Positions 39,622 through 63,451 of a DNA stretch of 64,000 bases are shown in pieces. The notes under the pieces were generated by a model. It saw only the letters and a program-made list of their open reading frames with translations. It had not been told where the DNA came from and searched no databases. The position numbers and the translations under genes were made by a program. The stretch spans positions 82,016 to 146,015 of the forward strand of contig CBDCGI010000005.1 of assembly GCA_965216725.1 (NCBI GenBank), written 5' to 3'. Positions within the stretch are counted from its first letter, which is position 1; each line of letters starts with the position of its first letter. This DNA is from Acidimicrobiia bacterium (GTDB lineage: Bacteria; Actinomycetota; Acidimicrobiia; Spongiisociales; ZC4RG35).

Positions 39622-39630
39622 CTCATCCTC

Positions 39631-39673: not shown

Positions 39674-39674
39674 G

Positions 39675-40766: not shown

Positions 40767-40819
40767 GAGGCGGACGGGACAGATCCGGGACAGCCGAACA
40801 CCCGTTCTGATCACCAAAA

Positions 40820-40926: not shown

Positions 40927-40956
40927 CATGTTGTCGGTCGACCATTATCGACCTCG

Positions 40957-41028
40957 CTCGGGGGGAAGGACTCGAACCCTCAATAACGGGACCAGAACCC
41001 GCCGTGTTACCGATTACACCACCCCCGA
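40957..41028 (-). tRNA. tRNA-Gln (anticodon CUG), CCA not encoded
   Basis: rc = TCGGGGGTGGTGTAATCGGTAACACGGCGGGTTCTGGTCCCGTTATTGAGGGTTCGAGTCCTTCCCCCGAG. It has a 7-bp acceptor stem with U1-A72, a 4-bp D stem, anticodon loop TTCTGGT and T-loop TTCGAGT. Confidence 0.7.
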
Positions 41029-41508: not shown

Positions 41509-41514
41509 CCGAGT

Positions 41515-42326: not shown

Positions 42327-42481
42327 CCGACGATGTCCACTCCGAGAGCCTGCAAGGCCCCCCAGATCACGACCAGAGCGGCGATCGCCAGGGCCGCGTT
42401 GCCCATTAGCTCTGCCGTGTTCAATCCGCGCTCATCCTCCCGGATGAGTGTGATGATTCGCTTCCATACCGGCATGGCCAC
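42296..42481 (-). CDS. flp: Flp/Fap family pilin
   Basis: The 61-aa product has a charged leader and a G/xxxxE processing motif (ERG-LNTAEL). Its hydrophobic core is AALAIAALVVIWGAL. Confidence 0.55.
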   Translation of the reverse strand: MAMPVWKRIITLIREDERGLNTAELMGNAALAIAALVVIWGALQALGVDIVGWIRASLLGG

Positions 42482-42490
42482 CTCCCTTTC

Positions 42491-43417
42491 TCAGTTCCAT
42501 CCGGTGATCAGGTACGGGAGTGGCGCGGCAACAAAGAGGATCAGCACCGGAGCCAGAATGGCGATTGTCGGGACGAGCATCGCCGCCCGGCGTTTCGTCG
42601 CTGATCTCTTGATCGACTCGCGTCGTGACTCCCGCACGTCCTCCGCCAGGTCGAGCAACGCCCCGGCGAGGTCGGCGCCCCGCTCCTCCGCCGACGCCAG
42701 CAGGCGATAGGTACGCCCGCAGTACGGCTCCGCTGTCAGCTCGGCGACGCGACGGAACGCCTCCCCCGCGCTCCAACCGGAGCGATGCAGTCGCAACGCA
42801 TCGCCGAGCTCAGACACCACCTCACCCCGACCACGATTCACAGTTGCGTTGACGGCCTGAACTATCCCGCCGCCGGCACGAACCCTCATCGCCAGCAGCT
42901 GATTGATGGTGTAGACCTCGATCCTCATCCGCTCGCGACGGTCAGCGATTGCCCGTTCCAAACGGCCCTTCTGTCGGGTGACCCCAACGACACCCCCCAT
43001 CGCCACGAGACCCGCCATGGACGTGGGCGGCATCTTCAACGCCACGCCGATTGCCAGTGTGCCGGCCATGGCGATCGACAACGCCCGCAACTGACCGACC
43101 CGATAGGCGGCCAGCATGTCGGCACCTTCCTGGCCTCGATACCAACCCGCCTGCCGCAGCTTTGTGACCGTCATCGGTTCGGCAGCGCGATCGAGGAGCC
43201 TGCCGAGCCAATGGGCGACCTCCTCGACCATTGGGCCAAACAGGCGGCCAACCGCAGTCGCCGGGCCACTGTGCCGGGCGGGTGACACGGAGGGCGAGAG
43301 GTACGGCCGGAGCCTGTGCTTCAGGGGACGCTGTGGCGAGACCAGCCAGCGGACCGTGAGCGCTGTTGCGATGGCTGTGGCGGTCCCTGCCGCCAGCGAC
43401 ATCTCGGAGATGGGCAT
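42491..43417 (-). CDS. tadC: Type II secretion system F-family protein TadC
   Basis: It is a polytopic membrane protein with a GspF/TadC layout. It follows tadB in the operon. Confidence 0.6.
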   Translation of the reverse strand: MPISEMSLAAGTATAIATALTVRWLVSPQRPLKHRLRPYLSPSVSPARHSGPATAVGRLFGPMVEEVAHWLGRLLDRAAEPMTVTKLRQAGWYRGQEGADMLAAYRVGQLRALSIAMAGTLAIGVALKMPPTSMAGLVAMGGVVGVTRQKGRLERAIADRRERMRIEVYTINQLLAMRVRAGGGIVQAVNATVNRGRGEVVSELGDALRLHRSGWSAGEAFRRVAELTAEPYCGRTYRLLASAEERGADLAGALLDLAEDVRESRRESIKRSATKRRAAMLVPTIAILAPVLILFVAAPLPYLITGWN

Positions 43418-44282
43418 CAGGATGCACCCCCACCCGGCAACAGAACGCGTGGCTCTTCAGGCTGTCGGCCGAGTCGGGACGCTATCACCAACCCGATCAG
43501 GCTCATGACGCCCCCGACGACGGCCACGAGGACGCCCGTGCGAGATGAGTAGAACTCACGAAAGGCGCCCGACTGAGCGGTCATGGCGACCAGCACGAGC
43601 CACGGGAGGACGAAGACGACCCTCGAGTTGATCTTCTGCTCCAACGCCTCGGTCCGGACCTGCTCGAGGGCCCAGATGTCTCTGGTCGTCGCCTCGGCGA
43701 GGTCGGTGAGGATTTCTGGCACCACCGAGCCACCACGCTCGTGGGCAACGATCATCACTTCGATCACGCGATCTGAAGTGGGATCTGCGAGATCGGAGCG
43801 AACCAACTCGAGCGCGGCGACAAATCCGAGCGAGCGTGAGTACACGGAGAAGCCGCCGAAAGCCTCACGCAGAGGCGCCGGTCCGAACGTGGCCAGACCC
43901 TCCACCGCGGTAGACAGCGACGCCCCCGACCGGACCGATGAAATCACGTCGCGAATGCCATCCGGCCAAGCCTCCTGGATTGCCGCCAGCCGCTGGGCAT
44001 GCCGCCTGCCGTAATAGGCCCGGGGCAAGGCGGCCACAACGACCGCTGGCATCAAGGCGATGATCGGGAGCTGGGTCAGGGAAGCAACGATGAAGTAGAC
44101 GACCAACCCCAGTCCCAACGAGACAGACCAGAATTGCAGCGCGGTAACCCCCAGGTCGTCCAGGCCAGACCAACTTCGGTCGCTGCGTGCGGGACGTTTT
44201 GCCCCCACTGACGCACGACGCCAAAAGAGCTTGACGATCAGGCCGGCGACCGCCGCGCTCATCAGGGAGGCAAGGAACGTCA
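43417..44282 (-). CDS. tadB: Type II secretion system F-family protein TadB
   Basis: It is a polytopic membrane protein with a GspF-like architecture. The start is probably MTFLASL at ~44282. Confidence 0.6.
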
Positions 44283-45542
44283 TTGCCGGCCTTCCATGAG
44301 CTCGGCGATCGATCCCCCGTTGGGTGTGACGCGTTCCAGGCGACGGGCAAGAGAACTCGGTGGTAGCGAGCCGGTCCATTCCAAAGGTGCGCCAAGTCTC
44401 TCTCGCACAAAAAGCGGCTCGGTGGAGAAATCGTCGTGGAGTGACGGAATCAGGGCGCGGACCTCAACCACCTGGCGAGTAATCGATCCATTGCTCTCCG
44501 CCTGCCGATCGAGATGGACGACGAGGTCTATCGACGACGCGAACACCTTGCGCACCACGCTCTCCGGGACGTTCTCGCCCGCCATCAGCGCGGCATTCAC
44601 AAGTGCGTGAAGCGCGTCGGGAGCAGAATTGGCGTGAATGGTGCAGGCCATCCCGCAGCCGGCGTTGACCGCCCTGGTCAACTCGAACGCCTCCGACCCT
44701 CTCACCTCGCCCACCACGATGAGATCAGGCCTCATCGCGAGAGTCACCTTCACCAAGTCGCGAAGGCTGATCTCGCCAGTCCCATCGAGCGACGGTGGGC
44801 GCGCCTCGTAGTAGGAGCCGTGGACGAGAGGAACGTGAAGCTCTCGAACCTCCTCGCAGGACCGCACACAATGACCTTCGGGGACGGCGGCGATCAGCGC
44901 CGAAAGGAAGGAAGTCTTGCCGGCGCCCGGCGGTCCGCTGATGAGGACCGATGCCGATGCCCTCATCGCCGCCTCCATCATCCGGCGCGCAGCCGCATCG
45001 ATCGACCCGAGCTCCTGTAATGAGCGCAGCGTCTCCCGTCGCAACGCGTAGCGACGGATCGTTGCGGACAGGCGGTCGGCGACAGGGGGAATGACGGCGC
45101 TCAGACGGGCAGTGCCCTCGAGAATTCGGGCCTGGACAATCGGCGACGATGCGTCGAGTCTTCTATCTGTCGAGGCGACCAGCCGCTCCACAACTCGACG
45201 GTTCTCGTCTTCCGTTGAAGGGACCTCGAGGCCACGCAAACCACCACCGGCTTCGAGGTAGGACACCCGATCACCCTCGATGAACACTTCCTCGACGTCT
45301 GTCCGCTCCAGCAAATCCCCGAGCACCCCGTGGCCCGAGACCGAGCGCACCAGCCGTTCCAGGGTCGTGCGTGGATCGGCCAGAGTCCGGCCGCTGCCGA
45401 CGCTGGCCTTTGCCTGATAATCCTCAACCGTCTGCCGCAGGACGGCCATGAGCCGTTCCTCATCGGAATCAGGGTCGACGCCAAGGCCGTCGATCCGCTC
45501 CAACGCGGTGCGGCGTATCTCGGCAAAAGCGTCGACGGTCAC
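44280..45542 (-). CDS. cpaF: CpaF/TadA secretion ATPase (VirB11/type II-IV family)
   Basis: Walker A is ISGPPGAGKTSFLSAL. There is an Asp box, a His box and a Walker B DLIVVGEVRG. Confidence 0.85.
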   Translation of the reverse strand: MTVDAFAEIRRTALERIDGLGVDPDSDEERLMAVLRQTVEDYQAKASVGSGRTLADPRTTLERLVRSVSGHGVLGDLLERTDVEEVFIEGDRVSYLEAGGGLRGLEVPSTEDENRRVVERLVASTDRRLDASSPIVQARILEGTARLSAVIPPVADRLSATIRRYALRRETLRSLQELGSIDAAARRMMEAAMRASASVLISGPPGAGKTSFLSALIAAVPEGHCVRSCEEVRELHVPLVHGSYYEARPPSLDGTGEISLRDLVKVTLAMRPDLIVVGEVRGSEAFELTRAVNAGCGMACTIHANSAPDALHALVNAALMAGENVPESVVRKVFASSIDLVVHLDRQAESNGSITRQVVEVRALIPSLHDDFSTEPLFVRERLGAPLEWTGSLPPSSLARRLERVTPNGGSIAELMEGRQ

Positions 45543-46614
45543 GTCGCCTCCGCCAATACGGCACGAGCCAGCGTCTTGATTGACTTCGAGAACCCGCCTC
45601 GTCTCGGAATTCGCCCATCCCAGGCCATCGAAGGGACCTTCGGATCCTCGGGCGCAAAAGCAACCCGAACATCGGGCAAGGCTCGTTCGAGCTCGTAACG
45701 TATCTCGTCCCGGGCTCGTCGTCCTCCCCGCACCCGGTTGACCAGCGCCAAGGCGCCATCGCCAGCCCTGAACCGTTCCAGACGGTCAATCAGGCGGCTC
45801 AGTCCGACCGGGCTTGCCTCGCCAACGACGACAGTTGCGCTGCTGTCGAGATCAACTGCTCCCGCACCGATGTCCACAACCACGAATTCGTGGCTTGTTG
45901 CGAGGTCGTCGACCATTCCCACCAACTCTTGGGAGGGAATGAGCCGACTGGGATCGGACCGAGCCAGGCCGCCAACAACCGAAACACCGTCAGTGACGTG
46001 AATGGCCTCCGCCAGCCGCTCGGGGTCATGGAATGCGAAGTCGACGGCCGTGTGGAGGTTTGGATAGAGAGGAAGGTCGAGGCGTTGTGCGACGCCGGGA
46101 AGGGCCTGGTCGAGATCAGCGAGAACCACGGAAGCCGCAGACGCAAGGTGAGCGGCAAGAACGATCGACACCTCAGTACAGCCGACACCGGAAGCACTGC
46201 CCGAGACCACGATGGTGTTGCCATATCGCCGGCGCTCTCCGTCCGCTTTCGGACTCGGAGTGCGATGGGCCAGCGTCCTGACTACGAGCTCGAGCACCTC
46301 CTCGGGAGAGGCATCCATCTCCACCACGTCAGAGATCCCACACTCGAGGAGCCTCCGCTTGGCGTCCGGGCCATCGTCCGGGCTGAACACGCCGAGCACT
46401 TCCCGGCCCTGCTCGCGCAGCTTTGCCACAAGTCGAGGAGTGAGAAACGAACAAACGTCGTCGATGAGGAGAGCCTGAAAACTCTCCTGCAGGGCCTGAT
46501 CCGAGCCCATGACCCGGGCAGTGACGACCCCACCTCCGTGGTCGAGGAGAAATCGATGCAGACGGTCGGGCCAGTCGCGCGCCGACGCCGCTATCGCAAT
46601 CTCAGGGCTGGGCA
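45539..46614 (-). CDS. cpaE: CpaE/TadZ-like (receiver-like N-domain + MinD/ParA-type ATPase)
   Basis: VVSGSASGVGCTEVSIVLAAHLA is a deviant Walker A. The start is MPSPEIAIA at ~46614. Confidence 0.65.
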
Positions 46615-47297
46615 TCGGATCGCTCCACGACGGGATCGGCACCGGTAGACCGCACGACGTCGATTGAGCCAGCGTCGACGGCCAAGGCCAGCGCCAGGGC
46701 CTGGTCGGGATCAACGGCGAGTGTCAAGAAGAACCCATTGGACGCGAGGCCGCCGGTGGATACATCGCCCACGTCCACAACCTCGATGGACGTGGCCACG
46801 TAGGTGGGCATTCCGTCGAGGACGGCGATGACGTCGACAGTGTCACCGGGCAGAATCGAACCACCTGCGGCGTGTTCGACGGCGACGGGAATGCTCATGA
46901 GACGTAGACCCGAAGCCGTGGCCGGAGGCGAAAGAGCGGTTGCCTGAATCAGGTCGCCTTCAGCGACGGGTACTCCCACGATCCAGCCGATGCTGGCTGC
47001 GACCTCGGATTCGGTGACCAAGCCGTCCAGGCCAACCAGACTCGCCGGCACAGACTCCAGCCGGATAGCCTCCTCACTGATTGCGGTGCCAATTGCAAGG
47101 TCGCTCCCGGCGACCGCCACTAGCACCATTGAGTCCCGACTCTGAAGCGCTAGATAGTTGAGTGCGAACGCGAGAGCGGCGGCGAGGACGATCAGAAGGT
47201 GCGCCAGTGACAACCGCCTTCGCCTGGATTTCGGCGAAGGTGCCGAGGTGCCCGCTTCCCTCGTGAGGACGGAGGGGTTGGCGCTCACGTACGACAA
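46602..47297 (-). CDS. cpaB: Flp pilus assembly protein CpaB/RcpC (SAF domain)
   Basis: It has an N-terminal TM anchor. The layout is typical CpaB. It is the first gene of the operon. Confidence 0.6.
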   Translation of the reverse strand: MSYVSANPSVLTREAGTSAPSPKSRRRRLSLAHLLIVLAAALAFALNYLALQSRDSMVLVAVAGSDLAIGTAISEEAIRLESVPASLVGLDGLVTESEVAASIGWIVGVPVAEGDLIQATALSPPATASGLRLMSIPVAVEHAAGGSILPGDTVDVIAVLDGMPTYVATSIEVVDVGDVSTGGLASNGFFLTLAVDPDQALALALAVDAGSIDVVRSTGADPVVERSDAQP

Positions 47298-49088: not shown

Positions 49089-49466
49089 ATGTTCGAATTC
49101 TTCCTTGGCTACAGCGCCGGGTCTTCGATGGCCTCCCGCGCGGCGACCCTCGCCCGGAGTGCTGCTGCAGCCGACGGGTTGCGGACCAGCAACCGAGTAG
49201 AGGACGTCAACGAACGGGTCGACACTCTCATGATCATCGTTCGGGCCATGTGGTCGCTGATGGAGCGGCAGGGACTGACACCACAGGACCTCGAAGCCGA
49301 AATCGAACGCCTCGACTCATTGGATGGCCTGCGTGATGGAGCCATACGATCAGCCCCGGTCGACTGTCCCAGCTGTGACTCCAAGGTGGCTCCGGGGCTC
49401 ACCCACTGTCAGTTCTGTGGAGCCGCCGTGTCCGGGGATGACGGCCACCCGATGGATCGCCTCTAG
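49089..49466 (+). CDS. Small protein with a C-terminal zinc-ribbon (CxxC-N14-CxxC), paralog 1
   Basis: MFEFFLGY..., a coiled-coil-like middle region, and DCPSCDSKVAPGLTHCQFCGAAV. Confidence 0.55.
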   Translation: MFEFFLGYSAGSSMASRAATLARSAAAADGLRTSNRVEDVNERVDTLMIIVRAMWSLMERQGLTPQDLEAEIERLDSLDGLRDGAIRSAPVDCPSCDSKVAPGLTHCQFCGAAVSGDDGHPMDRL

Positions 49467-49475
49467 GACTCCAAC

Positions 49476-49841
49476 ATGTTTGAGTTCTTCGTCGGATATG
49501 GGATGGGAGCCGGATCGGGTGTCGCTCGCAAAGCCTCACTCGCCAGATCGTCAGCAGTCGGAGAGTCGGCAGCCCAATTAGGACGAATCGAGGACCTCGC
49601 CGAGGAGGTGGCACGACTCTTGGTGATCGTCAGGGCGATGTGGTCGCTGCTCGAGGACAAAGGTTTCGACCCCGAGGAACTGAAGACGGCGATTGACGAC
49701 GTGGAGTCGAAGGCACAAATCAAGCCGGAAGCTGCCGACTGTCCGGAATGCGGGTCGAAAGTCGCCCCAGGCCTACCGGCCTGTCAGCTCTGCGGAGCAG
49801 CGGTTTTTCACACCGAGACAGGACCTGCCAGCCCGGTCTGA
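49476..49841 (+). CDS. Small protein with a C-terminal zinc-ribbon, paralog 2 (tandem duplicate)
   Basis: MFEFFVGY...VIVRAMWSLLE...DCPECGSKVAPGLPACQLCGAAV is about 45% identical to the upstream gene. Confidence 0.55.
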   Translation: MFEFFVGYGMGAGSGVARKASLARSSAVGESAAQLGRIEDLAEEVARLLVIVRAMWSLLEDKGFDPEELKTAIDDVESKAQIKPEAADCPECGSKVAPGLPACQLCGAAVFHTETGPASPV

Positions 49842-51388: not shown

Positions 51389-52117
51389 GTGGTCACGACA
51401 GAGCGGAAGAGAAAAGCCCCCTGGCCGCTGAGCCTCTATCAGACGGCTGTAGGCAAGAAGTGGGTCATGGCCCTCACCGGGATCGCCATCATCGGCTTCG
51501 TCATCGCCCACATGATCGGGAACTGGAAGATCTTCCTCCCCGACGTCGATGGCGTCCCTGAGATAGACCTCTACGCGGAAGCGCTACGCGAGCTCCTGTT
51601 CCCGCTGGTTCCCGAGCATGTCGTGCTGTGGATATTTCGCATCGGGCTCATAGTGGCCTTCGTCGTTCATATCCACGCCGCCTACTCACTCACGATCATG
51701 AGCCGGCAGGCTCGAGTCGACGAGTATCAGGGGCCGCGCAGATACCTGGCCGCGGACTATGCCAGCCGCACCATGCGCTGGTCTGGAGTCATCCTCGGCG
51801 CCTTCATCCTCTTTCATCTGGCCGACCTGACATGGGGCGTGGAGCCGGCAGCACCCGACGTGTGGGAACGTGGTGAGGTCTACGCCAACTTCGTGGCGAC
51901 CTTCAGCCGGGCGCCGGTGACTGTGTTCTACGTGATCTCGATGGGCCTTCTCGGGCTCCACATCTATCACGGGGCATGGTCGATGTTCCAGAGCCTTGGG
52001 ATCAACAACCCTCGGTACAACGCCCTTCGCCGTTATCTGGCCATCGGGCTGGCAGCACTGGTCACCGTGGGGAACGCCATCATGCCCATCGCCGTTCTCG
52101 TCGGGTGGGTGGGGTGA
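51389..52117 (+). CDS. sdhC: Succinate dehydrogenase cytochrome b subunit
   Basis: It has 5 TMS with conserved His (AHMIGN, HIHAAYS, FHLADL). It lies immediately upstream of sdhA and sdhB. Confidence 0.65.
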
Positions 52118-54039
52118 TGTCTTTGAAGCTCGAATCAAAGGTCCCTGCCGGTCCCCTTTCTGACAAATGGGAGAGCCACAAGTTCTCGGTCAATTTGGTG
52201 AACCCAGCCAACAAGCGGAAGTTCAAGATCATCGTGGTTGGCACCGGCCTGGCCGGGGCGTCCGCAGCAGCCACGTTGGGTGAGCTTGGCTACAACGTCG
52301 AGGCCTTCACCTTCCACGACACCCCGCGGCGAGCGCACTCGATAGCGGCCCAGGGCGGAATCAACGCCGCCAAGAACTACCGCAACGACGGAGACTCGGT
52401 GTGGCGGTTGTTCTACGACACGATCAAGGGTGGCGACTACCGGAGTCGGGAGGCGAACGTCCACCGTCTGGCTGAGGTCTCGCTGAACATCATCGACCAG
52501 GCAACGGCCCAGGGCGTTCCCTTTGCCCGGGAGTACGGCGGTTTGCTGGACAATCGCTCGTTCGGTGGGGCCCAGGTCTCTCGGACCTTCTATGCCCGGG
52601 GCCAGACCGGCCAACAGCTCCTTCTTGGCGCATACCAGGCGTTGATGCGTCAGGTCGACACCGGCAAGGTGAGACTTCACACCCGGGCGGAGATGCTCGA
52701 CCTGGTGGTGAAGGATGGCCAAGCGGTGGGGATCATCGTCCGTGACCTTGTGACGGGCGAGGTCAGCAGCCATTCCGCTCATGCCGTGGTTCTTGCCACG
52801 GGTGGCTATTCCAACGTCTTCTTCCTCTCCACCAATGCGATGGCCTCCAATGTCACCGCGATTTGGCGCGCTCACCGCAAAGGTGCCGCCTTCGCCAACC
52901 CTTGCTTCACCCAGATCCACCCGACTTGCATCCCCGCCTCCGACGAGTTCCAGTCGAAGCTGACCCTGATGTCGGAGTCATTGAGGAACGACGGCCGAAT
53001 TTGGGTGCCGAAGAATCCCGACGAGCAGCGTGCGGCGAACCACGTCCCAGAGTCAGACCGGGATTACTACCTGGAGCGGACATACCCGGCTTTTGGAAAC
53101 TTGGTCCCCCGGGATGTCGCCTCCCGGGCAGCGAAGCGAATGGTCGATTCCGAATACGGAGTCGGGCCGCTGAAGAATGGTGTCTACCTCGATTTCAGGG
53201 ATTCGATCGAACGCGACGGCAAGGCGGCCATCGAAGAGCGGTATTCGAACCTGTTCGAGATGTACGAGCGGATCACCGACGAGGACCCGTACCAGGTTCC
53301 GATGCGGATCTACCCGGCTCCCCACTACACCATGGGCGGCCTCTGGGTCGACTACAACCTGATGACGACCATCCCCGGCCTCTACGCAATCGGCGAAGCC
53401 AACTTCAGCGATCACGGGGCCAATCGCCTGGGCGCCTCGGCTCTCATGCAGGGTCTCGCCGACGGGTACTTCGTGCTCCCCTACACCATCGGCGATTATC
53501 TCGCCGGGCTGCTCAACACGCCCACCGTCCCTACGGACGATCCCGTATTCGCCGAGACCGCCAATCAGGTCGACCAACGGGTCGACGGGTACCTGGACAC
53601 CCGCGGGACCCGGTCGGTCGACTGGTTCCACAAGGAACTGGGCAAGATCATGCTCGAGTACTGCGGGATGTCGAGAAGCCAAACGGGCTTGGAGAAGGCA
53701 CTCTCGGAGATCCCCGCGTTGCACGAGGAGTATCTGAGCGACGTGAAGGTGCTGGGCTCGGCCAACACCTTCAATCAGGGTTTGGAACGGGCAGGCCGGG
53801 TGGACGACTTCTTCGAGCTGGCCCAGGTGATGTGTCTCGACGCACTCAACCGCGAGGAGTCGTGTGGAGGCCATTTCCGGGAGGAGCACCAGTCAGAAGA
53901 AGGTGAGGCATTACGCGACGACGAGGGCTTCGCCAACGTCTCGGCCTGGGAGTGGACAGGCGATGCTTCCCAGCCCGAACTGAACACCGAGCATCTCGAT
54001 TTCGAAGACGTCACCCTCACCACGAGGAGCTACAAGTGA
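52117..54039 (+). CDS. sdhA: Succinate dehydrogenase/fumarate reductase flavoprotein subunit
   Basis: FAD motif [14 protein letters not shown]; covalent-FAD His region [10 protein letters not shown]; HPTC; C-terminal capping domain. Confidence 0.9.
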
Positions 54040-54061
54040 GCTACCGGGCGGGGGCAGCGAC

Positions 54062-54826
54062 GTGAACCTCACCCTTCAGGTGTGGCGCCAGGCGGGCCCG
54101 GAGGCGACCGGAAGCTTCAGGACCTATGACGTGTCCGGTATCTCCGAGGAGATGTCTTTCCTCGAAATGCTCGACGTGCTCAACGAACGTTTGGTCAACG
54201 AAGGTGAGGAGCCGATCGCCTTCGACCACGACTGCCGGGAGGGCATCTGCGGCACCTGTGGTGTGATGATCGACGGATTGGCGCATGGCCCCCAGCAGGG
54301 CACGGCGACTTGCCAGCTTCACATGCGCAAGTTCTCCGACGGCGCCACGATCACGGTCGAACCGTGGCGGGCAACGGGGTTCCCACTCGTGAAGGACTTG
54401 GTAGTGGACAGGTCGGCCTTCGACCTCATCGTGGAGGCCGGCGGCTACATCAGCGTCGATACCGGGTCCGCTCCGGAAGCGAACTTGATCCCGGTGCCCA
54501 AGGAGGTGGCCGACACCGCCTTCGACGCCGCGGCCTGCATCGGGTGCGGAGCCTGTGTGGCGGCCTGTCCAAACGGCGCCGCCAACCTGTTCACCAGCGC
54601 CAAGATCAGCCATCTCAACCTGCTTCCACAGGGCCAGGCGGAGCGATGGAGGCGGACCGAGCGAATGGTGGAAGTCATGGAGGAGTACTTCGGGTCTTGC
54701 AGCAACCATGCAGAATGTGAGAAGGCATGCCCCAAGCAGATTTCGATCGACTTCATCGCCATGATGAACTCCGACTTCGTGAAGGCCAAGTTCAAGAATC
54801 GGAGGCTGGCCGGCCAACACGGCTAA
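54062..54826 (+). CDS. sdhB: Succinate dehydrogenase iron-sulfur subunit
   Basis: It has a 2Fe-2[11 protein letters not shown] motif plus [12 protein letters not shown] and a downstream CxxxCP cluster. Confidence 0.85.
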
Positions 54827-54921: not shown

Positions 54922-55434
54922 GTGGGCTGGGATCCATCCTCAAAACTCAGATCCCGGGGTAGGAGTGGCGAACGCGGCGCTGCACTCGTCGAAATGGCAC
55001 TGGTCCTGACCCTGCTGGTGATGCTTCTGGTGGGCACAGTCACGGGTGCGGTGGCGTTGGGTCAGAAGAACTCGCTGCAAAACGCAGCGCGCGAGGCCAG
55101 CCGCTTCGGCGCCACACTCCCGGGACCCATCGATCTCGCGTGGCTCCAGTCAGTGCGGAATGTTGCCCGAGCGGCCGCCACAGGCGATCTCGAGACTTCG
55201 ATCTCTGGCCAGTACATCTGCGTCGCGTTCGTCGACGGCTCAAACGACACTCGTCTCACCGACACCGGCGGTGTCGAGGCGCAAGCCGCTCAGGAGTGCT
55301 ATGACGACGGCCGGCCCAGCGGTGAGCGGAGGGTCCAGGTTGTGACTGAACGGGAGACCACCCTCCAGGCCATAGTGTTTTCGACAGATATCACGCTCAC
55401 GACGCCTGCTGCAGCCAGGTACGAGAGAGAATGA
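54922..55434 (+). CDS. TadE-like pseudopilin (pair 1, small)
   Basis: SGERGAALVEMALVLTLLVMLLVG. Confidence 0.6.
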   Translation: MGWDPSSKLRSRGRSGERGAALVEMALVLTLLVMLLVGTVTGAVALGQKNSLQNAAREASRFGATLPGPIDLAWLQSVRNVARAAATGDLETSISGQYICVAFVDGSNDTRLTDTGGVEAQAAQECYDDGRPSGERRVQVVTERETTLQAIVFSTDITLTTPAAARYERE

Positions 55435-57197
55435 GAAGAGCCATTAGCAACGATCGCGGAGCCTCGATAGTCGTCTTGTCTCTTGGTTTGTTCATGCTCA
55501 TAGGGGCGGCAGCCATAGCAATAGATCTTGCCGCGATGCGAACTGACCGAAGCGTCGACCAGAAGGTGTCGGACAGTGCGGCAGCCGCTGGAGCTCTGGC
55601 CGCGGTGACCGGCGATGGCCAGAACGCATGCGAAGCGGCACTCGCGTATGTCGCAGCCAACATGAGCTCGATCTCCTCTCTGAACGACACCGGGTGTGCC
55701 TCGGCGTTCTCTTCATCGTGCATCGCCGGAACTGCAGAATCGCACACGGTGACATCGGGGAGACACACATTCACGGTCACTTATCCGGTACCGGATGCCA
55801 GCCCTTTCATGACATCGGGCCTCCTCGGAGGCACAAGTCAGCCAGTCGTAGCGGAGGACGGCGATCCCTGCGACCGGGTTGCGGTTCAGGTGAGTGCCGT
55901 CCACAGCGGCCTATTTGCCCGAGTGCTCGGATTTGAGCAGGGCACTACCACCGTTCACACCGTTGCCACCGCGGTTCTTCCCTCGGGCGGTGGCGTGCCT
56001 TTGAACCTCCTGGTCCTCGATCGATTTGGTTGTCAGGCAATCCTTGTCCAGGGCAACGGTGGTGTCATCGTCGATGCGGTAGTCAATGAGGATGGAACGG
56101 GCCTTATCGCCGGTGTCGCTGCCTCAGACTCGGACGCCAGCTCGGGTTGCTCGAGCGACGGAGTGATCGACATCGACGGGTCCAATCCGATCATCCGTGC
56201 TGATGGTCCAGAAGGCTGTTCCAACCAGACCGGTACAGGCACGGTCGGAGGCTTTACAAGCGGCCACGGATGCGGGCTGCTGCAGACATTGGCTCCAGGA
56301 ACGCCGGGCTGCAACCTCCCGGCCTGCACTCCAGGCGCCGGTGGAGCCAACCCACCAAACCCCGACCCAACCGCCTTGCCAGCAAGGCTGACACGGGCGC
56401 CCATCGACTACCGCTACAACTGCTGGACCGACTACACATCACCGCCAGCCGGCGTCAGCTGGGCAGTGGATCCGCTAACCACTTCCAACGAGCAAGACAT
56501 CCCCGGATGCGGAGATGGCACTTCGGATCACATCTACGATCTGATCAATGCTGTCGGATCTTCCGGCTCGGCAGGATTCACCGATTGGACGACGCTCGGC
56601 CATCCATGTCTCGTCCCCTCATCGAGCCCTCCGATCACGGTCACCGGAGATGTTCGAATCGACTGTGCCACCTTCACCGTGCAGTCCGACGTGCAGATCG
56701 TCGGGAATGTGATATTTGACGGCGACGTCAACGTGACCTCGGGGACCGCGCATCTCGACGTGCACAACTCTCTCGGGTCACCTGGGTGGACCTTTTTCCG
56801 TGACGGGACGTTGACCAAGGATGGTCAGGCCGACCTGACATTCCTGTATACCGCGGTGTACATGTCCAAGACATCAAACGTTGCCGTCTCCGGAGGGAAC
56901 GACGGGAAACTCGTTTGGGTCGCGCCCAATAGCGGAAACTTCGACGATCTCGCTCTCTGGTCCGACTCGGCCACGACCCACAGCTGGGCGGGCCAAGGCG
57001 AGCTGCGGATGGAGGGAGTCTTCTTCACGCCGCTGGCGCTAGCGGACTATTCCGGTCAGGGGTCGCAGAACCAAACCGAGGCACAATGGGTAGCCGACAA
57101 GCTTCTCGCCCGAGGTCAAGGGCAGCTGGTGATCAGACCCGAGTTCGGCAGGGCGGTGGAGTTCCCCATCCTCCCCAGGACAACCCTCATCCGATAG
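55431..57197 (+). CDS. Large TadG-like secreted protein (pair 1; 588 aa)
   Basis: NDRGASIVVLSLGLFMLIGAAAIAIDLAA..R.D is the TadE/G N-terminal motif. It has a long Cys-containing extracellular region. Confidence 0.6.
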   Translation: MRRAISNDRGASIVVLSLGLFMLIGAAAIAIDLAAMRTDRSVDQKVSDSAAAAGALAAVTGDGQNACEAALAYVAANMSSISSLNDTGCASAFSSSCIAGTAESHTVTSGRHTFTVTYPVPDASPFMTSGLLGGTSQPVVAEDGDPCDRVAVQVSAVHSGLFARVLGFEQGTTTVHTVATAVLPSGGGVPLNLLVLDRFGCQAILVQGNGGVIVDAVVNEDGTGLIAGVAASDSDASSGCSSDGVIDIDGSNPIIRADGPEGCSNQTGTGTVGGFTSGHGCGLLQTLAPGTPGCNLPACTPGAGGANPPNPDPTALPARLTRAPIDYRYNCWTDYTSPPAGVSWAVDPLTTSNEQDIPGCGDGTSDHIYDLINAVGSSGSAGFTDWTTLGHPCLVPSSSPPITVTGDVRIDCATFTVQSDVQIVGNVIFDGDVNVTSGTAHLDVHNSLGSPGWTFFRDGTLTKDGQADLTFLYTAVYMSKTSNVAVSGGNDGKLVWVAPNSGNFDDLALWSDSATTHSWAGQGELRMEGVFFTPLALADYSGQGSQNQTEAQWVADKLLARGQGQLVIRPEFGRAVEFPILPRTTLIR

Positions 57198-57275
57198 GTC
57201 CAGAACAGGCCCAAAGACCTACTTCCAAGCGCGGTCGTTGGCTTTAATCTGTGCTTTGGGACGACACTCTCTCTT

Positions 57276-57782
57276 GTGGAGGGGAACGGATTGAGGCTGG
57301 GGCACATGGGCTATATCAGATCGCGCCGGGAGCGTGGGGCGGCACTGGTCGAGTTTGCGGTGTTGATGCCGCTATTGGTTTTGCTGCTGCTGGGCATCGT
57401 CGAATTTGGCTGGCTGCTGTCACAGCATCTCGACGTACGGCACGGCGCCCGGGAAGGCGCCCGCCTGAGCGCGGTCAACTACCCGGCCGGACCGAACTTC
57501 TCGACGGGACTCAGAAATGACGGCGACCGCGATGCATTGATCGCCGAGATATGCGACCGGATGGACACCGCTTCATCTGTAGCAGTGACTCTCACCAGCG
57601 CCGGCGCAGTGGGAGACCCTTCCACGGTAAAAGTATCGGCGCCCGCCGCCAGCCTGACCGGTTTCCTCAGCTGGGCGATTCCGTCGTCGTTGAATCTGGT
57701 CTCGGAAGTCGAAATCAGGCTGGAGCAAAACGCGACGTGGACCAACACCGTTGCTCCGCCGCCGGGTCAGGCATGTCCGTAG
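57276..57782 (+). CDS. TadE-like pseudopilin (pair 2, small)
   Basis: RERGAALVEFAVLMPLLVLLLLGIVEFGW. Confidence 0.6.
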   Translation: MEGNGLRLGHMGYIRSRRERGAALVEFAVLMPLLVLLLLGIVEFGWLLSQHLDVRHGAREGARLSAVNYPAGPNFSTGLRNDGDRDALIAEICDRMDTASSVAVTLTSAGAVGDPSTVKVSAPAASLTGFLSWAIPSSLNLVSEVEIRLEQNATWTNTVAPPPGQACP

Positions 57783-59224
57783 CAAAGACCTCCGAGCAGG
57801 GCGCCTCAGCTGTGGTCATCGCCCTCTCAATGCTGGTGATCATGGGATTTGCCGCCCTGGCGATCGACATCGGACTAGGCCTCAACGAAAGACGTCAGGA
57901 CCAGGCGGCATCGGATGTCGGTGCCCTCGCAGCTGTCCAGTTCGCACAACCCAACGCGGGATGCTCCGGTGCAAGCTGCGTAACCCAAGCCGCGACCAAC
58001 GGCGCCAACGAGGCGATAACAGTGGCCAACGCGTCTCTCGACGACCCCAGCGCGGCTGACTGGACGGATTCGTCTCGATGCGGGACACCACCAGCCGGAT
58101 TCAGCGTCTCTCCAGTGACGGACTGTGTCGCATTCACGGCGAACTTCCAGCGGGCCTGGGTGAAGGTTCCGATCATCGACTCGCCGACCTATTTCGGCCG
58201 TCTCTTGGGTGCCGACAGCCTCGCGGTGAGCGCCGACTCCATCGCCGACCAGGGTTTCAGCAACCCGGGTCCCGTCTGGCCCTTCTTGCTTCCGGGTAAT
58301 GCGGCCAGTGCCGATTACAACTGCCTCAAGACCGGACCCAACCCGGCATGGGGTGTTTGTGAGGACCTTCCTGGCACGGGCAACTTCGGGTCGATGGACT
58401 TCTTCATATTCGGCAACCAGGAACGCAACACGACTCAGAAATGCACGGGTGATACCAACGGCCGTCTGGTCTCCAACATCGCACGCGGAATCGATCATCC
58501 CCTTGGCCTGCATCCCTCAGGTGTTGGCGCCGGCAAAGAAGAGAAAGAAGTATGTCCGATACTTGGAGCCGAGCCAGACATGGCGGACGGTCAACCCGGA
58601 GTGGGCTCAGCCCTCGAGGATGGACTCCTGTATGGCGGGTCCAGCTACACCATCGACGGCATCCCCTATCCGGGTCGGATCGAAGACAGCTCAGGCTTCT
58701 TGGTCAGAGACGCACAGGGCAGCACACCAGCAGCGCGAATCGATGACACCACGCTCTGGTCCTACCTGGCTGGCGGGCTGCCCGGTCCGTGTAGCTCCGC
58801 AACCGTCGACACTCCCCAAGAGATGGTCTCCTGCATCGGCTGGGCCAAGTCGACCGGCACCGAGATATTCATTGACGACATCATCTTCGCCCCCAGATTC
58901 GGGTTCACCCCGGGAGTTTGGGAACTGGACTTCTTGACGCCTGGGTCGGCCTATCACATCAAGGAGTATCGGCCGGTCTACATGGACACCACCTACTACG
59001 GATGCACATCCAGCTCTTGTGACATTGTTCACACTGTGGGTGTGGCAGATGGCGGCCCGTGCGGGCCCGACCCCGAATTCGTGACATGCGGGACTCCTGG
59101 CCCCGGCAACAAGGGCCTGGATGCTGTTGCTGCATACATCCTCGACCCGAGCATCCTCCCCGACGTCGCAAAGACTCCGAATCCGGGGGCAGCCAACCAG
59201 CGCTCCTACGCCCTGTCGGAGTAG
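57774..59224 (+). CDS. Large TadG-like secreted protein (pair 2; about 483 aa)
   Basis: EQGASAVVIALSMLVIMGFAALAIDIGLGLNERRQDQAASD. The real start is the ATG ~57774. The upstream part of the 557-aa ORF overlaps the TadE gene. Confidence 0.6.
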
Positions 59225-59373
59225 TAGCACCGCTGCAGCGAGATTTCGGGTCCTTAGACCCACTCAACCCTCAAGGTTTTGGTTGCTTATTCCGACATTT
59301 CCCATAGGCTGTATCCGGTCTGGGAAGGCGATTCACCACCTGGGGCAGCCTGAGCTAAGCGAAAGAGCTGAGG

Positions 59374-59832
59374 ATGGCCCAACTCAACAGACTTTTACCT
59401 TCCCGAAATCACGACGACGAGCGCGGAGCGAACCTTGTCGAGTTCGCGATCGTCATGCCCTTTCTCGTCCTGCTTCTCTTGGGCATCGTCGAGTTCGGCT
59501 GGGTGTTCAGCCAGAACAACGACATCCGCCACGGCGCCCGAGAGGGAGCACGAGCAGCCGCAGTCAACATCGGAGACAACAACACTCTTCACACCTCGAC
59601 GTGCGACTCCATGGACCTCACGTCAACAGCGACGGTCAAATTCGAAGACAGCGCTTCCGGCGCCGTCGGCGAAGTGGCGGCTGTTCAGGTCGTCGCCAGC
59701 CCGAATTCGCTCTCGGGTCTGGGGCTCATCGAAGCCGTCCTTCCTTCGACTCTCACTTCGACGATCGAGTTTCGACTCGAGCAGCCGTCGAGTCTGTGGT
59801 CCACCGACGGCAGTGCCTACAGCTGCCCATGA
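59374..59832 (+). CDS. TadE-like pseudopilin (pair 3, small)
   Basis: DERGANLVEFAIVMPFLVLLLLGIVEFGW. Confidence 0.6.
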   Translation: MAQLNRLLPSRNHDDERGANLVEFAIVMPFLVLLLLGIVEFGWVFSQNNDIRHGAREGARAAAVNIGDNNTLHTSTCDSMDLTSTATVKFEDSASGAVGEVAAVQVVASPNSLSGLGLIEAVLPSTLTSTIEFRLEQPSSLWSTDGSAYSCP

Positions 59833-61385
59833 GGCCGGGAATCTTCAAGTCCGAACGAGGCGCCTCGGCGATCATGGTCGCCATTTCCGCGGTGTTGGTC
59901 ATGGGTGTCGCTGCGATCGCCATCGATGCAACCGGTTTCGGCTTCAACGAACGTCGCCAGGCACAGGCAGCCGCTGACACTTCTGTTATGGCCGGAGGAC
60001 TCGGATTCCTCCTGGCAGAGACCGAAACCACGAAAGTGACCAATGCCCTAGACGTGGCACGGGCCAACCTGAACGCCACGTACAGCGATGCTGAATGGCA
60101 GTCGTTGTGGGAAAACTGCGTCGACCCCGACCGCACAGCGGTGGACGTCGGGACCGGCACACCGGTGAGCTTCACACCCATGGCCAGCCCATGGGGAGGG
60201 ACACTCGACTGTGTCAGCCAATCGAGCAGCTTCATGAGGGTCAGGATCCCCGATCAGATATTCGCCACCAGCTTCGGGGGCGTGATCGGTGTCGACTCAC
60301 TGGAGACACATGCTGCTGCGGTCGCTCGCATCGAGCCGATCAGCGAGTTCGATGGTCTTCTGCCCTTCGGGATTCCTGGTGGCTCCGGCCCGGGCGAGCT
60401 TTGCCTCAGCACCAATCCTTCCGGACCGGCTCAGCCACCTTGCCAGGGACCCAACGGCGGAGGGTTCGGTGCGATCAATGCCGAGCTGTTCGGCGACTTC
60501 TTTGGAACTCCCAGTTGCTCCAACCCCGGCGCACCCGAGCTCGAACAGAACATCGCTCTCGGCATGGACCACTTCATCGACAAGTGGTCTGCAGCGGACG
60601 CCGGAGCTGAAGGAGTCACCTCCGGCTCACCACATCCTGGCGATGGGACAATCGGGGGCTATCAGAATGTCTCATTCGACCAGTGCCGTTTGGTCGGGGG
60701 ATCCGTCGTCCCTGAGGACCCGACTCACCAGTTTCCACCCAACACGCTTCGCGTTGACACCGGCTTCTCGCAGTCGAACGCGGTGGAGGATGCCCTCATC
60801 TCGAATAAGACGTACCTGGGTCAAAAGTCTCGACTGCAGGACACCACGAATCCGACTCGGAATCTCATCAAGAAGTCGACCGGGGGCACATCTACGGTTT
60901 ACGTAGTCGACAATCGGGGTCCATGGGATTACCTCACCGGCTCTGGGGATTGCGATTCCGCTTCATACTCCGGCCTGACTACGGACCAGAAGGTGGCGCT
61001 GTTCCATACCTGTCTCTCGAACTACTCGGGTACCGCAGACATTTTCGATTCCAACATCCGGCACTCGCCGAGATTCGGGTGGGCGCCTGAGTATTGGCAT
61101 GCGGCTTCAACATCGGGGACCTCGTGGCAACCGGTCAAGGAATACAACATGGTGTTCCTCGCAGGGCTCTGGTTCAATTGCGACGCTTCAACCTGTGAGG
61201 GAGTGTTCTACCCGGATACCGACGTGACCTCGGATCTTTGCCTGGTATTCGGTGGAGGATGCAAGGAACTAAGTCTTGGCCAGATGTCGGCATGGCTGCT
61301 TCCTAGCGAGGCAGTCCCGAATTCAGTTTCGTCATCCTTCCCGGGTGGCGAGGTTTCCCCGTTCTCGGTGGCACTCTTCCGCTGA
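59829..61385 (+). CDS. Large TadG-like secreted protein (pair 3; about 518 aa)
   Basis: SERGASAIMVAISAVLVMGVAAIAIDATGFGFNERRQAQAAAD. The ATG overlaps the upstream stop. The 754-aa ORF 59121..61385 is an artefactual extension. Confidence 0.6.
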   Translation: MRPGIFKSERGASAIMVAISAVLVMGVAAIAIDATGFGFNERRQAQAAADTSVMAGGLGFLLAETETTKVTNALDVARANLNATYSDAEWQSLWENCVDPDRTAVDVGTGTPVSFTPMASPWGGTLDCVSQSSSFMRVRIPDQIFATSFGGVIGVDSLETHAAAVARIEPISEFDGLLPFGIPGGSGPGELCLSTNPSGPAQPPCQGPNGGGFGAINAELFGDFFGTPSCSNPGAPELEQNIALGMDHFIDKWSAADAGAEGVTSGSPHPGDGTIGGYQNVSFDQCRLVGGSVVPEDPTHQFPPNTLRVDTGFSQSNAVEDALISNKTYLGQKSRLQDTTNPTRNLIKKSTGGTSTVYVVDNRGPWDYLTGSGDCDSASYSGLTTDQKVALFHTCLSNYSGTADIFDSNIRHSPRFGWAPEYWHAASTSGTSWQPVKEYNMVFLAGLWFNCDASTCEGVFYPDTDVTSDLCLVFGGGCKELSLGQMSAWLLPSEAVPNSVSSSFPGGEVSPFSVALFR

Positions 61386-61489
61386 CGCTCGACCGATACC
61401 GGTTGCCGTGATGGTGATCTCCCGGTAGTCTCACTCTCTGTGGCCGGCGATTACGCAGGCACACGACAGCGGAGCGGGAGGCACCCAAA

Positions 61490-61918
61490 TTGGGTCGGGC
61501 CACCGTGCGGGGAGACAACTGGGGAGGGGCCCTTGTGGAATTGGCCTTGCTCGCGCCTTTCCTCATCCTTTTGCTGCTCGGGTCAATCGATACTTCGCAC
61601 CTCCTGTTCACCCACCAGGATGTGCGGCATGCCGCGCGTGAAGCCGGGCGATTGGCTGCCACGGACGCCGGGGATACATCAACCATCGCCACACGGGTCT
61701 GTGATGCGATGGATAACTCGACGGGAGCACAAGTCGTCCTGTCCGGCGCTGCCGGGGGCCTTGGAGACGAGATCGAAGCTACGGTGTCGCGCCCAACAGA
61801 CACCTTGGTGGGTTTCGTCGACTGGGCATTCGACCCACCCGTCAATCTAAGTTCCACCGCCACGTTCCGGCTTGAAGTCACCACGGCGACCTGGACCGAC
61901 GGGACCGTCTCATGCTGA
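61490..61918 (+). CDS. TadE-like pseudopilin (pair 4, small; degenerate ERG motif)
   Basis: GDNWGGALVELALLAPFLILLLLGSID. Confidence 0.55.
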   Translation: MGRATVRGDNWGGALVELALLAPFLILLLLGSIDTSHLLFTHQDVRHAAREAGRLAATDAGDTSTIATRVCDAMDNSTGAQVVLSGAAGGLGDEIEATVSRPTDTLVGFVDWAFDPPVNLSSTATFRLEVTTATWTDGTVSC

Positions 61919-63451
61919 ACACGGATCGTGGAGCAAGCGCCGTCGTCATCGCACTCACCATGGTGGTCATCATGGGCTTCCTCGCCTTGGCGGTTGACAT
62001 CGGCTTCGGCTTCAATGAACGCCGCCAAGATCAGATCGGGGCCGACTCAGGTGCGACCGGCGGCTCGTTGGAGATGGTGGTTACCAGCCAGACCAACCCA
62101 GTTCAGGCCGCGGTGGACGAGATCTACGCGCTCGCCGATCAGAACCTGGGTCAGGGCCATCCCCCTTGCCGACTGGACCGGATGCACCGATTCCGAAGCT
62201 CTCTTCTACCTCTCTACAGACTCAATGTTCAACACCACGGACGCCTCACCATGCATCTCCCTGTCGTCCGATTTCAACACGATCCGAGTCCGCGTACCGA
62301 TCCAAGGGGTGCCCACGATTTTCGGGAAGTTCCTCGGTGCCGACACCATCGACGTCAGTGCGGCCGCAGAAGCGCAACGCAACATCGACTGGGGTGGGGG
62401 TGGCGACTTCCCGGCGGGTGTCTACAGCGGAACCAACGCTGGAGATCCTCTGTGCGTCAAGTTCGGACCTTCCGGCCATGAAACCTGCCAGGACCCCGAT
62501 TTGGGAAGCCCCACTGGAAGCTTTGGGATGTTCCTCCCCTACTTCTATTCGTCGGTCGCAGGTGACCTGAGCTCGATTTGCGTCAGTGGACAGCAGGCGC
62601 AGTCGATCGCGCGTGCCATGGCCGACGGCATCGACCACGAGTTCTCAGGTCATCTCGACCCGGCACTCGGGACCGGAGAGGACCGACGCAACGGTGAATG
62701 GTGCATGACCTCCAACACCCCCGGGCCGCCGTTCCCCAACATGGTCCGCAACGAGGCCGGGCTGCAGAAACAGGCTGTGACCATGGGTCTGGTCAAAGGT
62801 GGTACCTGGCCGGGATCAGCCAGCTATGCGGGCAGGCTGGACAGGGGGCCCTATCAGGACTCCGCCCACCTGGTGTTCGGGGTGGACCTGGATAATCGTC
62901 CTCTATGGGACTTCATCGACGACACGTTCGACTTCACGAGCGCTGGCGCCCCCACGTGCGACTTGGCCAAGGCACACCTCCCCATCGTCGATCGATCTGA
63001 GCGGGTGATAGCCATCACTGAAGCTTCAACTTGTCTCGCCGAGGCGATGGCGGCCGTGCCGAACCCGTTGCGGGTATTCACCACCGACATCCTGGCCTCG
63101 CAGCGGGTGGGACACTCGCCGCTTTTCTGGGAGACCGGGTACTGCGGCTTCAACTCCTGCTACTACCACATCAAAGGTCTGGTACCCATCTTCATCGATG
63201 GGCTTTGGGCGCAGACCTCACCGCCGTTCACCTGTAGCGGCGAATTCGTGGAGGACACCACGAACGGACTCTGTATCGCGTACGCCGGGACTCAAGGAAC
63301 GATGTTTGTCTCGTCTCCCGGACAACAGCGCATCGAGTCGACAAGCGCAATCGTCCTCGACTGTGCGCTGATGCCGGTCGGCACATGCCCCACCCTCCAG
63401 GACGGAACGGGGCCGCTCAACTTCCTCTACGACCTTCAACTGACCCGGTAG
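61912..63451 (+). pseudogene. Large TadG-like secreted protein (pair 4) interrupted by a frameshift in a C5 run at about 62161-62165 (or sequencing error / slippage)
   Basis: The N-terminal 83 aa (TDRGASAVVIALTMVVIMGFLALAVDIGFGFNERRQDQ) are in frame 1. The paralog-conserved continuation ...PLADWTGCTDSE... is in frame 2. Removing one C restores a single ~513-aa ORF. Confidence 0.55.

Follow-up and report, generated by a model that had tools for sequence, protein, structure and literature searches.

The results presented here suggest that an Acidimicrobiia bacterium probably encodes four alternative tip modules for a Tad/Flp pilus. The modules lie at positions 54922-63451, on the + strand, of a 64,000-nucleotide stretch of contig CBDCGI010000005.1, referred to as the window. 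Listing and translation of open reading frames (ORFs) reveal eight genes in this region, arranged as four pairs, each consisting of a gene for a small TadE-type pseudopilin (S1 to S4) followed by one for a large TadG-like pilin (L1 to L4) (Table 1). Each pair would act as a minor-pilin module that both primes and caps the pilus built by the core tad locus approximately 7.6 kb away. The first-pass annotation of this DNA had offered two proposals, a diversified set of pilus-tip pseudopilins or adhesins, and a family of secreted effectors that hijack the Tad leader. The former is supported by predicted pilins with big distal domains, one of them ComZ-like, by the distribution of glutamate at position 5 (Glu5), and by the co-divergence of S and L. 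The latter received no specific support. Among the Actinomycetota, the mostly uncultured Acidimicrobiia are abundant in soils and waters, and to our knowledge nothing is known about their surface appendages.

Four pairs of pilin genes

The arrangement of four TadE-like genes, each followed by a large TadG-like gene with overlapping stop and start, is confirmed by the ORFs, Pfam and blastp. The overlaps measure 4, 10, 4 and 7 nt in pairs 1-4 (that of S3/L3 is ATGA), which suggests translational coupling within each pair. The gaps between pairs are 78-149 nt long. A promoter and terminator scan of the window found no promoter- or terminator-like site in any of these gaps; sigma-70-like sites are no commoner in the window than in shuffles of it. 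When the upstream regions of the four pairs were aligned, no common element emerged, and Rfam has no match in the array, its only matches in the window being three tRNAs elsewhere. The GC content is 0.605-0.624 in 2-kb blocks over the array (54-64 kb), inside the range of the remaining window. Recent horizontal acquisition of the array is not indicated, given this GC content and the presence of orthologous arrays at the same site in relatives.

All four small proteins match the Pfam family TadE (PF07811), a domain that comprises the N-terminal 43 residues, with scores of 49.1, 56.9, 56.6 and 49.2 bits for S1 to S4 against a cutoff of 22.9; NCBIfam gave only sub-threshold matches of the TadE_Rv3655c/Rv3654c type. 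In an all-against-all blastp comparison, S2, S3 and S4 are paralogous (39-49% identity, E 1e-17 to 1e-30), with S2 and S3 49% identical and S4 39-41% identical to both, and S1 is related to them through the N-terminus only. Members of the S family begin with a basic leader followed by (E/D)RG↓A(S/A/N)LVE(F/M)A..P.LL...G, where the arrow marks the predicted cleavage site. The motif occurs in 59 of 74 family sequences, all of which have Gly at -1 and Glu at +5, with Phe or Met at +6. The leader is a Flp/TadE-type class III signal by sequence. The first-pass annotation had pointed to prepilin-peptidase cleavage motifs as a feature to look for, and all four window proteins carry the motif with Gly at -1 and Glu at +5: GERG↓AALVEMA in S1, RRERG↓AALVEFA in S2, DDERG↓ANLVEFA in S3, and the variant GDNWG↓GALVELA in S4. 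Each small protein of the window has 2 Cys. In S2, S3, S4 and their orthologues two Cys are conserved, one in the middle of the protein and one 0-2 residues from the C-terminus, suggesting that a disulfide staples the C-terminus in a manner that recalls the D-region of type IVa pilins.

The large proteins also have pilin-like N-termini. L2 and L4 match the Pfam family Tad (PF13400) with 24.8 and 24.0 bits, above the cutoff of 22.3, and L3 falls slightly under it with 20.0 bits; all 47 of 47 L2-family sequences match PF13400. L1 has no PF13400 match and a weak match to Tad_C (PF09977; 19.7 bits, cutoff 22.1), but its first ~70 residues match L2 (E 6e-8) and L4 (E 2e-8) by blastp. L2, L3 and L4 are full-length paralogues of one another, with 27-28% identity and E values of 2e-36 to 8e-31. 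The earlier claim that pairs 2-4 are paralogous and pair 1 divergent is thereby borne out, pair 1 being kin to the others via its N-termini only. The TadE/G N-terminal motifs and the DW..C...VRVP...FG..LGAD block described before are both present, and the Cys richness of the large proteins amounts to 12-14 residues each. The window contains several paralogous minor-pilin sets, each with one large pilin: four sets with two classes of distal domain.

The small and large proteins differ at the start of the mature pilin. The L family, judged from the 48 of 76 sequences that were aligned, has the pattern (E/D)(R/S/Q)G↓A(T/S)A followed by hydrophobic residues, with Asp at +22 and NERRQ at +28 to +32, and lacks Glu5; the leaders NDRG↓ASIVV of L1 and KSERG↓ASAIMV of L3 are both without it. 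Glu5 is thus absent from the large proteins and kept in their small partners. GspK, the capping minor pseudopilin of type II secretion, lacks Glu5, and the same absence in L is as expected for a capping subunit. In high-confidence AlphaFold2 (AF2) models of L1 and L2, a long alpha1 helix is followed by a pilin-head sheet, beyond which lies a large distal domain. The pilin architecture consists of helices 8-57 and 67-88 and strands 119-162 in L2, and of helices 8-60 and 63-77 and strands 103-182 in L1.

Two classes of distal domain

The L1 model (predicted local distance difference test, pLDDT, 88.5; 49 sequences) comprises a pilin module at ~1-182 and then a beta-solenoid distal domain. Like ComZ, it has a beta-solenoid integrated with a type IV pilin scaffold. 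The predicted fold resembles ComZ over both the pilin and the solenoid parts, with a sequence identity of only 9%. The best beta-solenoid matches of L1 are adhesins or binding proteins and ComZ, with no enzymes among them. A tip domain of this ComZ- and tapirin-like type would suggest binding to a polymer, a surface or DNA.

The second class is formed by L2, L3 and L4. The L2 model (pLDDT 91, predicted template modelling score 0.86; 47 sequences) has a beta-sheet head to ~165 and then a C-terminal alpha/beta domain of ~320 residues that bears G239-I-D241-H242. A Foldseek search of the PDB with this distal domain returned no relative (best E 0.16, TM 0.05), and sequence-profile searches of the PDB with the L2 and L1 families gave nothing below E 0.6. 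None of 47 L2-family members out of 47 has a Pfam match beyond the N-terminal module, and NCBIfam has nothing for the L2 distal domain. According to the model, the L2/L3/L4 distal domain is a fold without a known relative in the libraries searched (PDB, Pfam and NCBIfam). In particular, it is not a von Willebrand factor A (vWA) domain with a metal ion-dependent adhesion site, as found in the vWA-bearing TadG/CpaL subgroup. The first-pass annotation had regarded membership of the large proteins in a known TadG/vWA family as contrary to its proposal, and no vWA fold was found.

The G(I/M)DH motif noted earlier is real: GxDH shows no variation among the 47-50 sequences aligned, nor in a diverse set of 144 sequences from the family. 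In the latter set, which has a median identity of 31% to L2, G239, D241 and H242 are conserved in 100% of the sequences, as are D32, D48, C118, P133, C184 and C196; R375 is conserved in 99%, W329 in 97% and D324 in 93%. L2 orthologues are evenly conserved, with 54-65% identity in every segment. Between the L paralogues, conservation peaks in the alpha1 helix, with 48% identity versus 20-29% elsewhere. These patterns point to old, individually conserved paralogues, not fast-evolving variable adhesins. Ten Cys are common to the L paralogues, and this and the even conservation of L2 are consistent, at the level of sequence, with a functional extracytoplasmic protein. Decay of duplicated genes was considered and rejected for L1-L3, as their orthologues are conserved over the full length.

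The invariant GxDH and the conserved R375, D324 and W329 could mark an active site, and the pairs might then be substrates or pseudopilus parts of a Tad-driven secretion process resembling type II secretion, with the L proteins released as effectors or enzymes by way of a borrowed pilin leader. This seems improbable. Each distal domain is attached to an entire pilin module, with alpha1 and head sheet, which is more than a leader. Neither sequence nor fold gave a match to an enzyme family, and the solenoid matches of L1 are to binding proteins. Moreover, a profile of the L2 family searched against 1.84 billion cluster representatives matched 354 clusters at E <= 1e-30, and among the best 150 of the 354 nearly all matches begin at the N-terminus of the profile, so within these 150 representatives the distal domain is seen only fused to the pilin module.

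Conservation of the pairs and of the array in relatives

A word-indexed database contains 117 homologues of L2 and 219 of L1, all from metagenomes or metagenome-assembled genomes. Where taxon names are given they are Acidimicrobiia, and the proteins are annotated at source as 'TadG-related', 'Flp pilus assembly protein TadG' or hypothetical. Named members of the sampled clusters of the L2-family profile search belong to Acidimicrobiia or Acidimicrobiales. A scan of one genome per GTDB species yielded 32 loci, 30 of which have Acidimicrobiia or Acidimicrobiaceae in their titles. The other two go under 'uncultured Acidobacteriota' and 'uncultured Actinomycetota'.

The window proteins, together with hidden Markov models of S and L, were mapped onto 36 related loci (numbered L001 onwards) plus the window. 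An S gene directly precedes 62 of the 70 L genes that have their N-terminus, with the gene ends overlapping or nearly so. The identity matrices of S and L correlate with r = 0.87 over 41 full-length pairs, a value reached by none of 2000 shuffles of S partners within loci (0/2000). By this measure each small protein has diverged in step with its cognate large partner, and the pair is a conserved unit. The arrays of relatives contain 1-7 modules; the one with seven modules lies downstream of sdhB in L032. In L019, L028, L032, L033 and L036, S-S-L triplets are mixed with S-L pairs (for example, L032:2202-15611), and L001 and L022 have a further class of large pilin, ~430 aa, after an S1-like gene.

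The position of the array is also conserved. In nine related loci whiB and sdhCAB are directly upstream of it, with gaps of up to a few hundred nt; in L022 and L023 tadZ/rcpC, an HTH_17 gene and bpa are upstream as well. A dihydrodipicolinate synthase (DHDPS)-like gene follows the S-L genes in ten loci. These loci identify the block of tad, bpa, whiB, sdhCAB, the array and the DHDPS-like gene as a conserved neighbourhood of the lineage. The first-pass annotation had described the array as separate from the tad operon. This holds in so far as the array is ~7.6 kb off the tad locus, but the block of tad, bpa, whiB, sdhCAB and array recurs in relatives, and the tad locus and the array are therefore conserved neighbours. 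It had also counted a standard place for the array in the tad loci of relatives among the signs against its proposal, and half of this is seen, since the array is a standard, conserved feature of the lineage.

The constant place downstream of sdhB could instead be explained if the array works with succinate dehydrogenase, for example as part of a surface structure linked to respiration. The order whiB, sdhCAB, array in the nine loci, and the gap of ~95 nt with no predicted terminator in the window, would fit such a link. However, the most similar S2-L2 pairs of other genomes are not near sdh, and the proteins contain no redox motifs or cofactor-binding families. The synteny is explained more simply by descent, combined with a site permissive for insertion or duplication between sdhB and the DHDPS-like gene, and a role with succinate dehydrogenase is very improbable.

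A model for exchangeable pilus tips

The favoured model would proceed as follows. The prepilin peptidase that matures Flp would also cut every S and L after the shared (D/E)RG. S and L would then pair in the membrane via their N-terminal alpha1 helices. L would top the filament: with its disulfide-stabilised distal domain of 300-400 residues it would be unable to fit inside, and the lack of Glu5 together with this bulk would place L on top. S, which keeps Glu5, would sit beneath L as the bridge to the Flp subunits polymerised by TadABC. The module that primes assembly would thus decide what the pilus tip displays. Tips made with L2, L3 or L4 would present three versions of the novel domain, in which GxDH probably forms a ligand-binding, metal-binding or catalytic pocket. 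A bolder version would have a new fold with an Asp-His catalytic or metal centre (GxDH, R375, D324 and W329) on the end of a Tad pilus, giving a pilus that is enzyme-tipped or senses a specific ligand, and a tandem array, controlled by an extracytoplasmic function (ECF) sigma factor in some relatives, that lets Acidimicrobiia switch tips. As a whole this version is distinctly unlikely.

Several points weigh against the tip-module model. The pairing of S with L and the docking of the pair onto Flp are deduced indirectly, from translational coupling and S-L co-divergence, and cleavage, the S-L complex, tip incorporation and any binding or catalytic activity are likewise predictions. The nearest orthologues of L2 (64-69% identity; L004-L012, L024 and L025) are encoded as single S2-L2 pairs elsewhere in their genomes, where they adjoin an ECF sigma/anti-sigma pair, with no tad locus within 10 kb. 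A crude motif scan (G.GD[VIALMF][KR]) found no A24 prepilin peptidase signature in the 64-kb window, and Pfam and NCBIfam (E <= 0.01 to 1) recognise neither the core flp-like pilin nor the two core TadE-like ORFs. According to the first-pass annotation the core locus already has flp and three TadE/G genes, and candidates for all four are present: a flp-like gene, two TadE-like ORFs and one short TadG-like ORF. With TadE-like and short TadG-like genes of its own, the core locus may not require the extra modules to assemble a pilus.

Finally, L4 is frameshifted in this sequence. There is a one-base shift of frame near 62152-62170 (CAGGGCCATCCCCCTTGCC, with a run of five C, + strand), which leaves the N-terminal 82 codons in the frame of 61912 and the remainder in the frame of 61928. 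Removal of one C restores an L4 of 512 aa that aligns there without a gap to the intact orthologue in the related locus L001. The frameshift could be an assembly error, a recent inactivation that created a fresh pseudogene, or a slippage-prone tract. The layout of four large genes reported earlier thus holds, except that L4 is not one intact ORF.

Some of these points would also fit L proteins that never enter a pilus and are surface adhesins, sensors or enzymes anchored in the cytoplasmic membrane by an uncleaved helix, perhaps with S. The L proteins have a long hydrophobic alpha1 helix without Glu5, and no peptidase gene was found in the window. In addition, many S2-L2 pairs of relatives are away from any tad genes and beside ECF sigma/anti-sigma genes with a shared promoter-like motif, a setting typical of envelope proteins. 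Membrane anchoring of this kind is nevertheless unlikely. Gly at -1 and the (D/E)R/xG leader are retained in the L family just as they are in Flp and S, which a simple signal anchor would not need, and the obligate pairing with a bona fide TadE-type pseudopilin points to a role in a pilus. The lack of Glu5 is itself a hallmark of capping minor pilins such as GspK, and L1 resembles ComZ in both its pilin and solenoid parts. Placement of the L proteins at a pilus tip is also in line with the leaders of the core locus: Flp, one core TadE-like protein and the core TadG-like protein share (D/E)RG with the array proteins, consistent with one peptidase for all. The two core TadE-like ORFs have the leaders DDRG↓HAAVEF and SERG↓VGSVQF, the second with Gln, not Glu, at +5.

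The promoter-like motif of the relatives, GTAACC-N16-17-CGAT(A/T)AC, resembles promoters of ECF sigma factors and immediately precedes S2 orthologues and, in L021, an S3-like gene. It recurs immediately before the anti-sigma gene of an ECF sigma/anti-sigma pair nearby. By S genes it occurs on the + strand at L006:9434, L008:768, L009:9442, L010:887, L011:9442, L012:9434, L017:9463, L018:7489, L021:9472 and 13155, and L027:6705. By the anti-sigma gene it occurs on the - strand at L006:8734, L008:71, L009:8743, L012:8746, L024:6120 and L025:8762. The ECF sigma/anti-sigma pair is divergent from S2-L2 in most motif-bearing loci. There are 20 matches in 1.1 Mb versus ~4 expected by chance, which points to S2-L2 as a member of an ECF regulon in those relatives. 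The array of the window is without this motif, and the window is without a homologue of that ECF sigma factor. The looser pattern GT(A/T)A(C/T)(C/T)-N14-20-CGAT(A/T)(A/G)C has a single copy in the window, at 16014 (-) with an 18-nt spacer, downstream of murA (16418-17671) and at the start of the ORF 15330-15998; with ~0.4 expected, it is probably due to chance.

Genomic setting

The features of the array, the core tad locus and the sdh genes are listed in Table 1. The array begins ~95 nt after the end of sdhB at 54826, and a DHDPS-family gene starts at ~63480 after it. Between the tad locus and the array are an HTH_17 gene, a few small genes, bpa (proteasome activator), whiB and sdhCAB. Two adjacent small genes between the tad locus and sdhCAB, 49089-49466 and 49476-49841, encode paralogous proteins with an MFEFF.GY start and a C-terminal zinc-ribbon (CPxC...CxxCG).

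Table 1. Positions of the pilin gene pairs, the core tad locus and adjacent genes in the window
Feature	Position	Strand	Evidence
S1, TadE-family pseudopilin, 170 aa from GTG start	54922-55434	+	PF07811 E 5.9e-13
L1, large TadG-like pilin, 588 aa, 14 Cys	55431-57197	+	ORF translation
S2, TadE-family pseudopilin, 168 aa; alternative ATG start 57306	57276-57782	+	PF07811 E 2.2e-15
L2, large TadG-like pilin, 483 aa, 14 Cys	57773-59224	+	PF13400 above cutoff
S3, TadE-family pseudopilin, 152 aa	59374-59832	+	PF07811 E 2.7e-15
L3, paralogue of L2 and L4, 518 aa, 12 Cys	59829-61385	+	blastp L2 E 5e-32, L4 E 8e-31
S4, TadE-family pseudopilin, 142 aa, TTG start	61490-61918	+	PF07811 E 5.8e-13
L4, paralogue of L2 and L3, split by frameshift	61912-63451	+	Repaired protein vs L2 blastp E 2e-36
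GxDH variants: L2 G-I-D-H; L3 G-M-D-H; L4 G-I-D-H		+	Sequence
Core tad locus, presumed assembly machine	41099-47297	-	Pfam RcpC, T2SSE, T2SSF twice, Tad PF13400
rcpC/cpaB-like	46602-47297	-	Pfam RcpC
tadZ-like	45539-46714	-	
tadA	44280-45542	-	Pfam
tadB	43417-44379	-	Pfam
tadC	42491-43417	-	Pfam
flp-like pilin, 61 aa, EDERG↓LNTAEL	42296-42481	-	Position and N-terminal motif only
Two small TadE-like ORFs	41937-42326, 41515-41940	-	Position and N-terminal motif only
Short TadG-like ORF, 199 aa, SDRG↓SATFW	41099-41698	-	PF13400 E 2e-6
sdhC, sdhA, sdhB, directly upstream of the array	51389-54826	+	SdhA, SdhB 72-83% identity to orthologues preceding S-L arrays in nine related loci

On its other side, the tad locus is separated from the upstream genes by a probable integrated island at 35792-40800, which ends at two tRNA genes (40855-40927 and 40957-41028). 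The island includes a tyrosine-integrase-like ORF (35792-36862), a second ORF (39262-39621) whose C-terminal half is a close match to the C-terminal end of that integrase-like ORF, a matrixin-like secreted peptidase (38140-39135, - strand) and a protein with HATPase and DUF4325 (STAS-like) domains (39660-40766). The GC content falls to 0.557 at 38-40 kb, within the probable island.

Comparison with known systems

If the model is correct, one Tad machine in this lineage can draw on a conserved set of as many as seven exchangeable tip modules, which offers an explanation of how Acidimicrobiia might attach to particles, polymers or other cells. The distal domain family of L2-4, with at least 354 clusters at 50% identity, a confident predicted structure and no solved or annotated relative, is a target for work on structure and binding. 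Among the papers listed by a literature search, none combines Acidimicrobiia with Tad pili or minor pilins.

The principle that one Tad machine can have several paralogous sets of minor-pilin tip proteins was published in 2025 (PMC12075869). In the Kil system of Myxococcus xanthus, four paralogous kilLMN clusters, some of them outside the core cluster, encode interchangeable Tip complexes for one Tad-like machine (Herrou et al. 2025, PMC12075869). KilN is a large TadG-like pilin at the distal end, with a disulfide-rich C-terminal domain that has no PDB homologue, and it was proposed that Tad pili in general are customised by Tip modules (PMC12075869). The array resembles Tip1-4 in having several paralogous minor-pilin sets per Tad-type machine, with sets away from the core cluster, and a large TadG-like pilin whose C-terminal domain is without PDB relatives, is predicted to be rich in disulfides and would occupy the distal end. 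However, the modules described here have two genes and form one tandem array, whereas those of Kil have three genes at scattered loci, and the host is presumably a monoderm, non-predatory member of Acidimicrobiia with no link to T3SS*. Homologues of tip1-4 are reported to be restricted to Myxococcota (PMC12075869), and judged by this published range the two systems do not belong to the same sequence families.

Other systems share individual properties with the array. CpaL of Caulobacter, an orphan TadG-like pilin, carries a vWA domain and has been modelled at the Tad tip (PMC12607857). Like TadG/CpaL proteins (Caulobacter CpaL, and TadG of P. aeruginosa and A. actinomycetemcomitans), the L proteins combine a TadG-type N-terminal pilin module with a large C-terminal domain. 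Genes for proteins of the TadG/CpaL type can lie outside the core locus, and models put these proteins at the tip together with two small minor pilins, but there is one copy of them, compared with four in tandem here. In Synechocystis, two minor-pilin sets prime different pili and include beta-solenoid PilX subunits (bioRxiv 10.64898/2026.02.12.705559). ComZ of Thermus thermophilus is a pilin with an integrated beta-solenoid that was argued to fit only at the tip (Salleh et al. 2019, PMC6561018; PDB 6qvi), and it binds the small pilin PilA2 and DNA (PMC6561018). The predicted L1 resembles ComZ-PilA2 as a large pilin with a beta-solenoid in the pilin scaffold and a small pilin partner. The two differ in pilus class: ComZ is part of a type IVa pilus in a diderm, and the N-terminus of L1 is of the TadG type (type IVc). 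The tapirins, type IV pilus-associated cellulose adhesins of Caldicellulosiruptor (PDB 6n2c, 6n2b), are a further close system for the L1 solenoid.

Compared with these systems, what differs here is the organization as two-gene modules in one tandem array, in uncultured Acidimicrobiia and at a conserved site between sdhB and a DHDPS-like gene, and a distal domain of L2-4 that forms its own unannotated family with an invariant GxDH. To a pilus specialist this may be a useful extension and a good structural target, but no surprise after the 2025 Tip paper. If the model holds, the 'adaptable tip' idea extends from predatory Myxococcota to a non-predatory Gram-positive lineage, in the form of a simpler, two-protein module.

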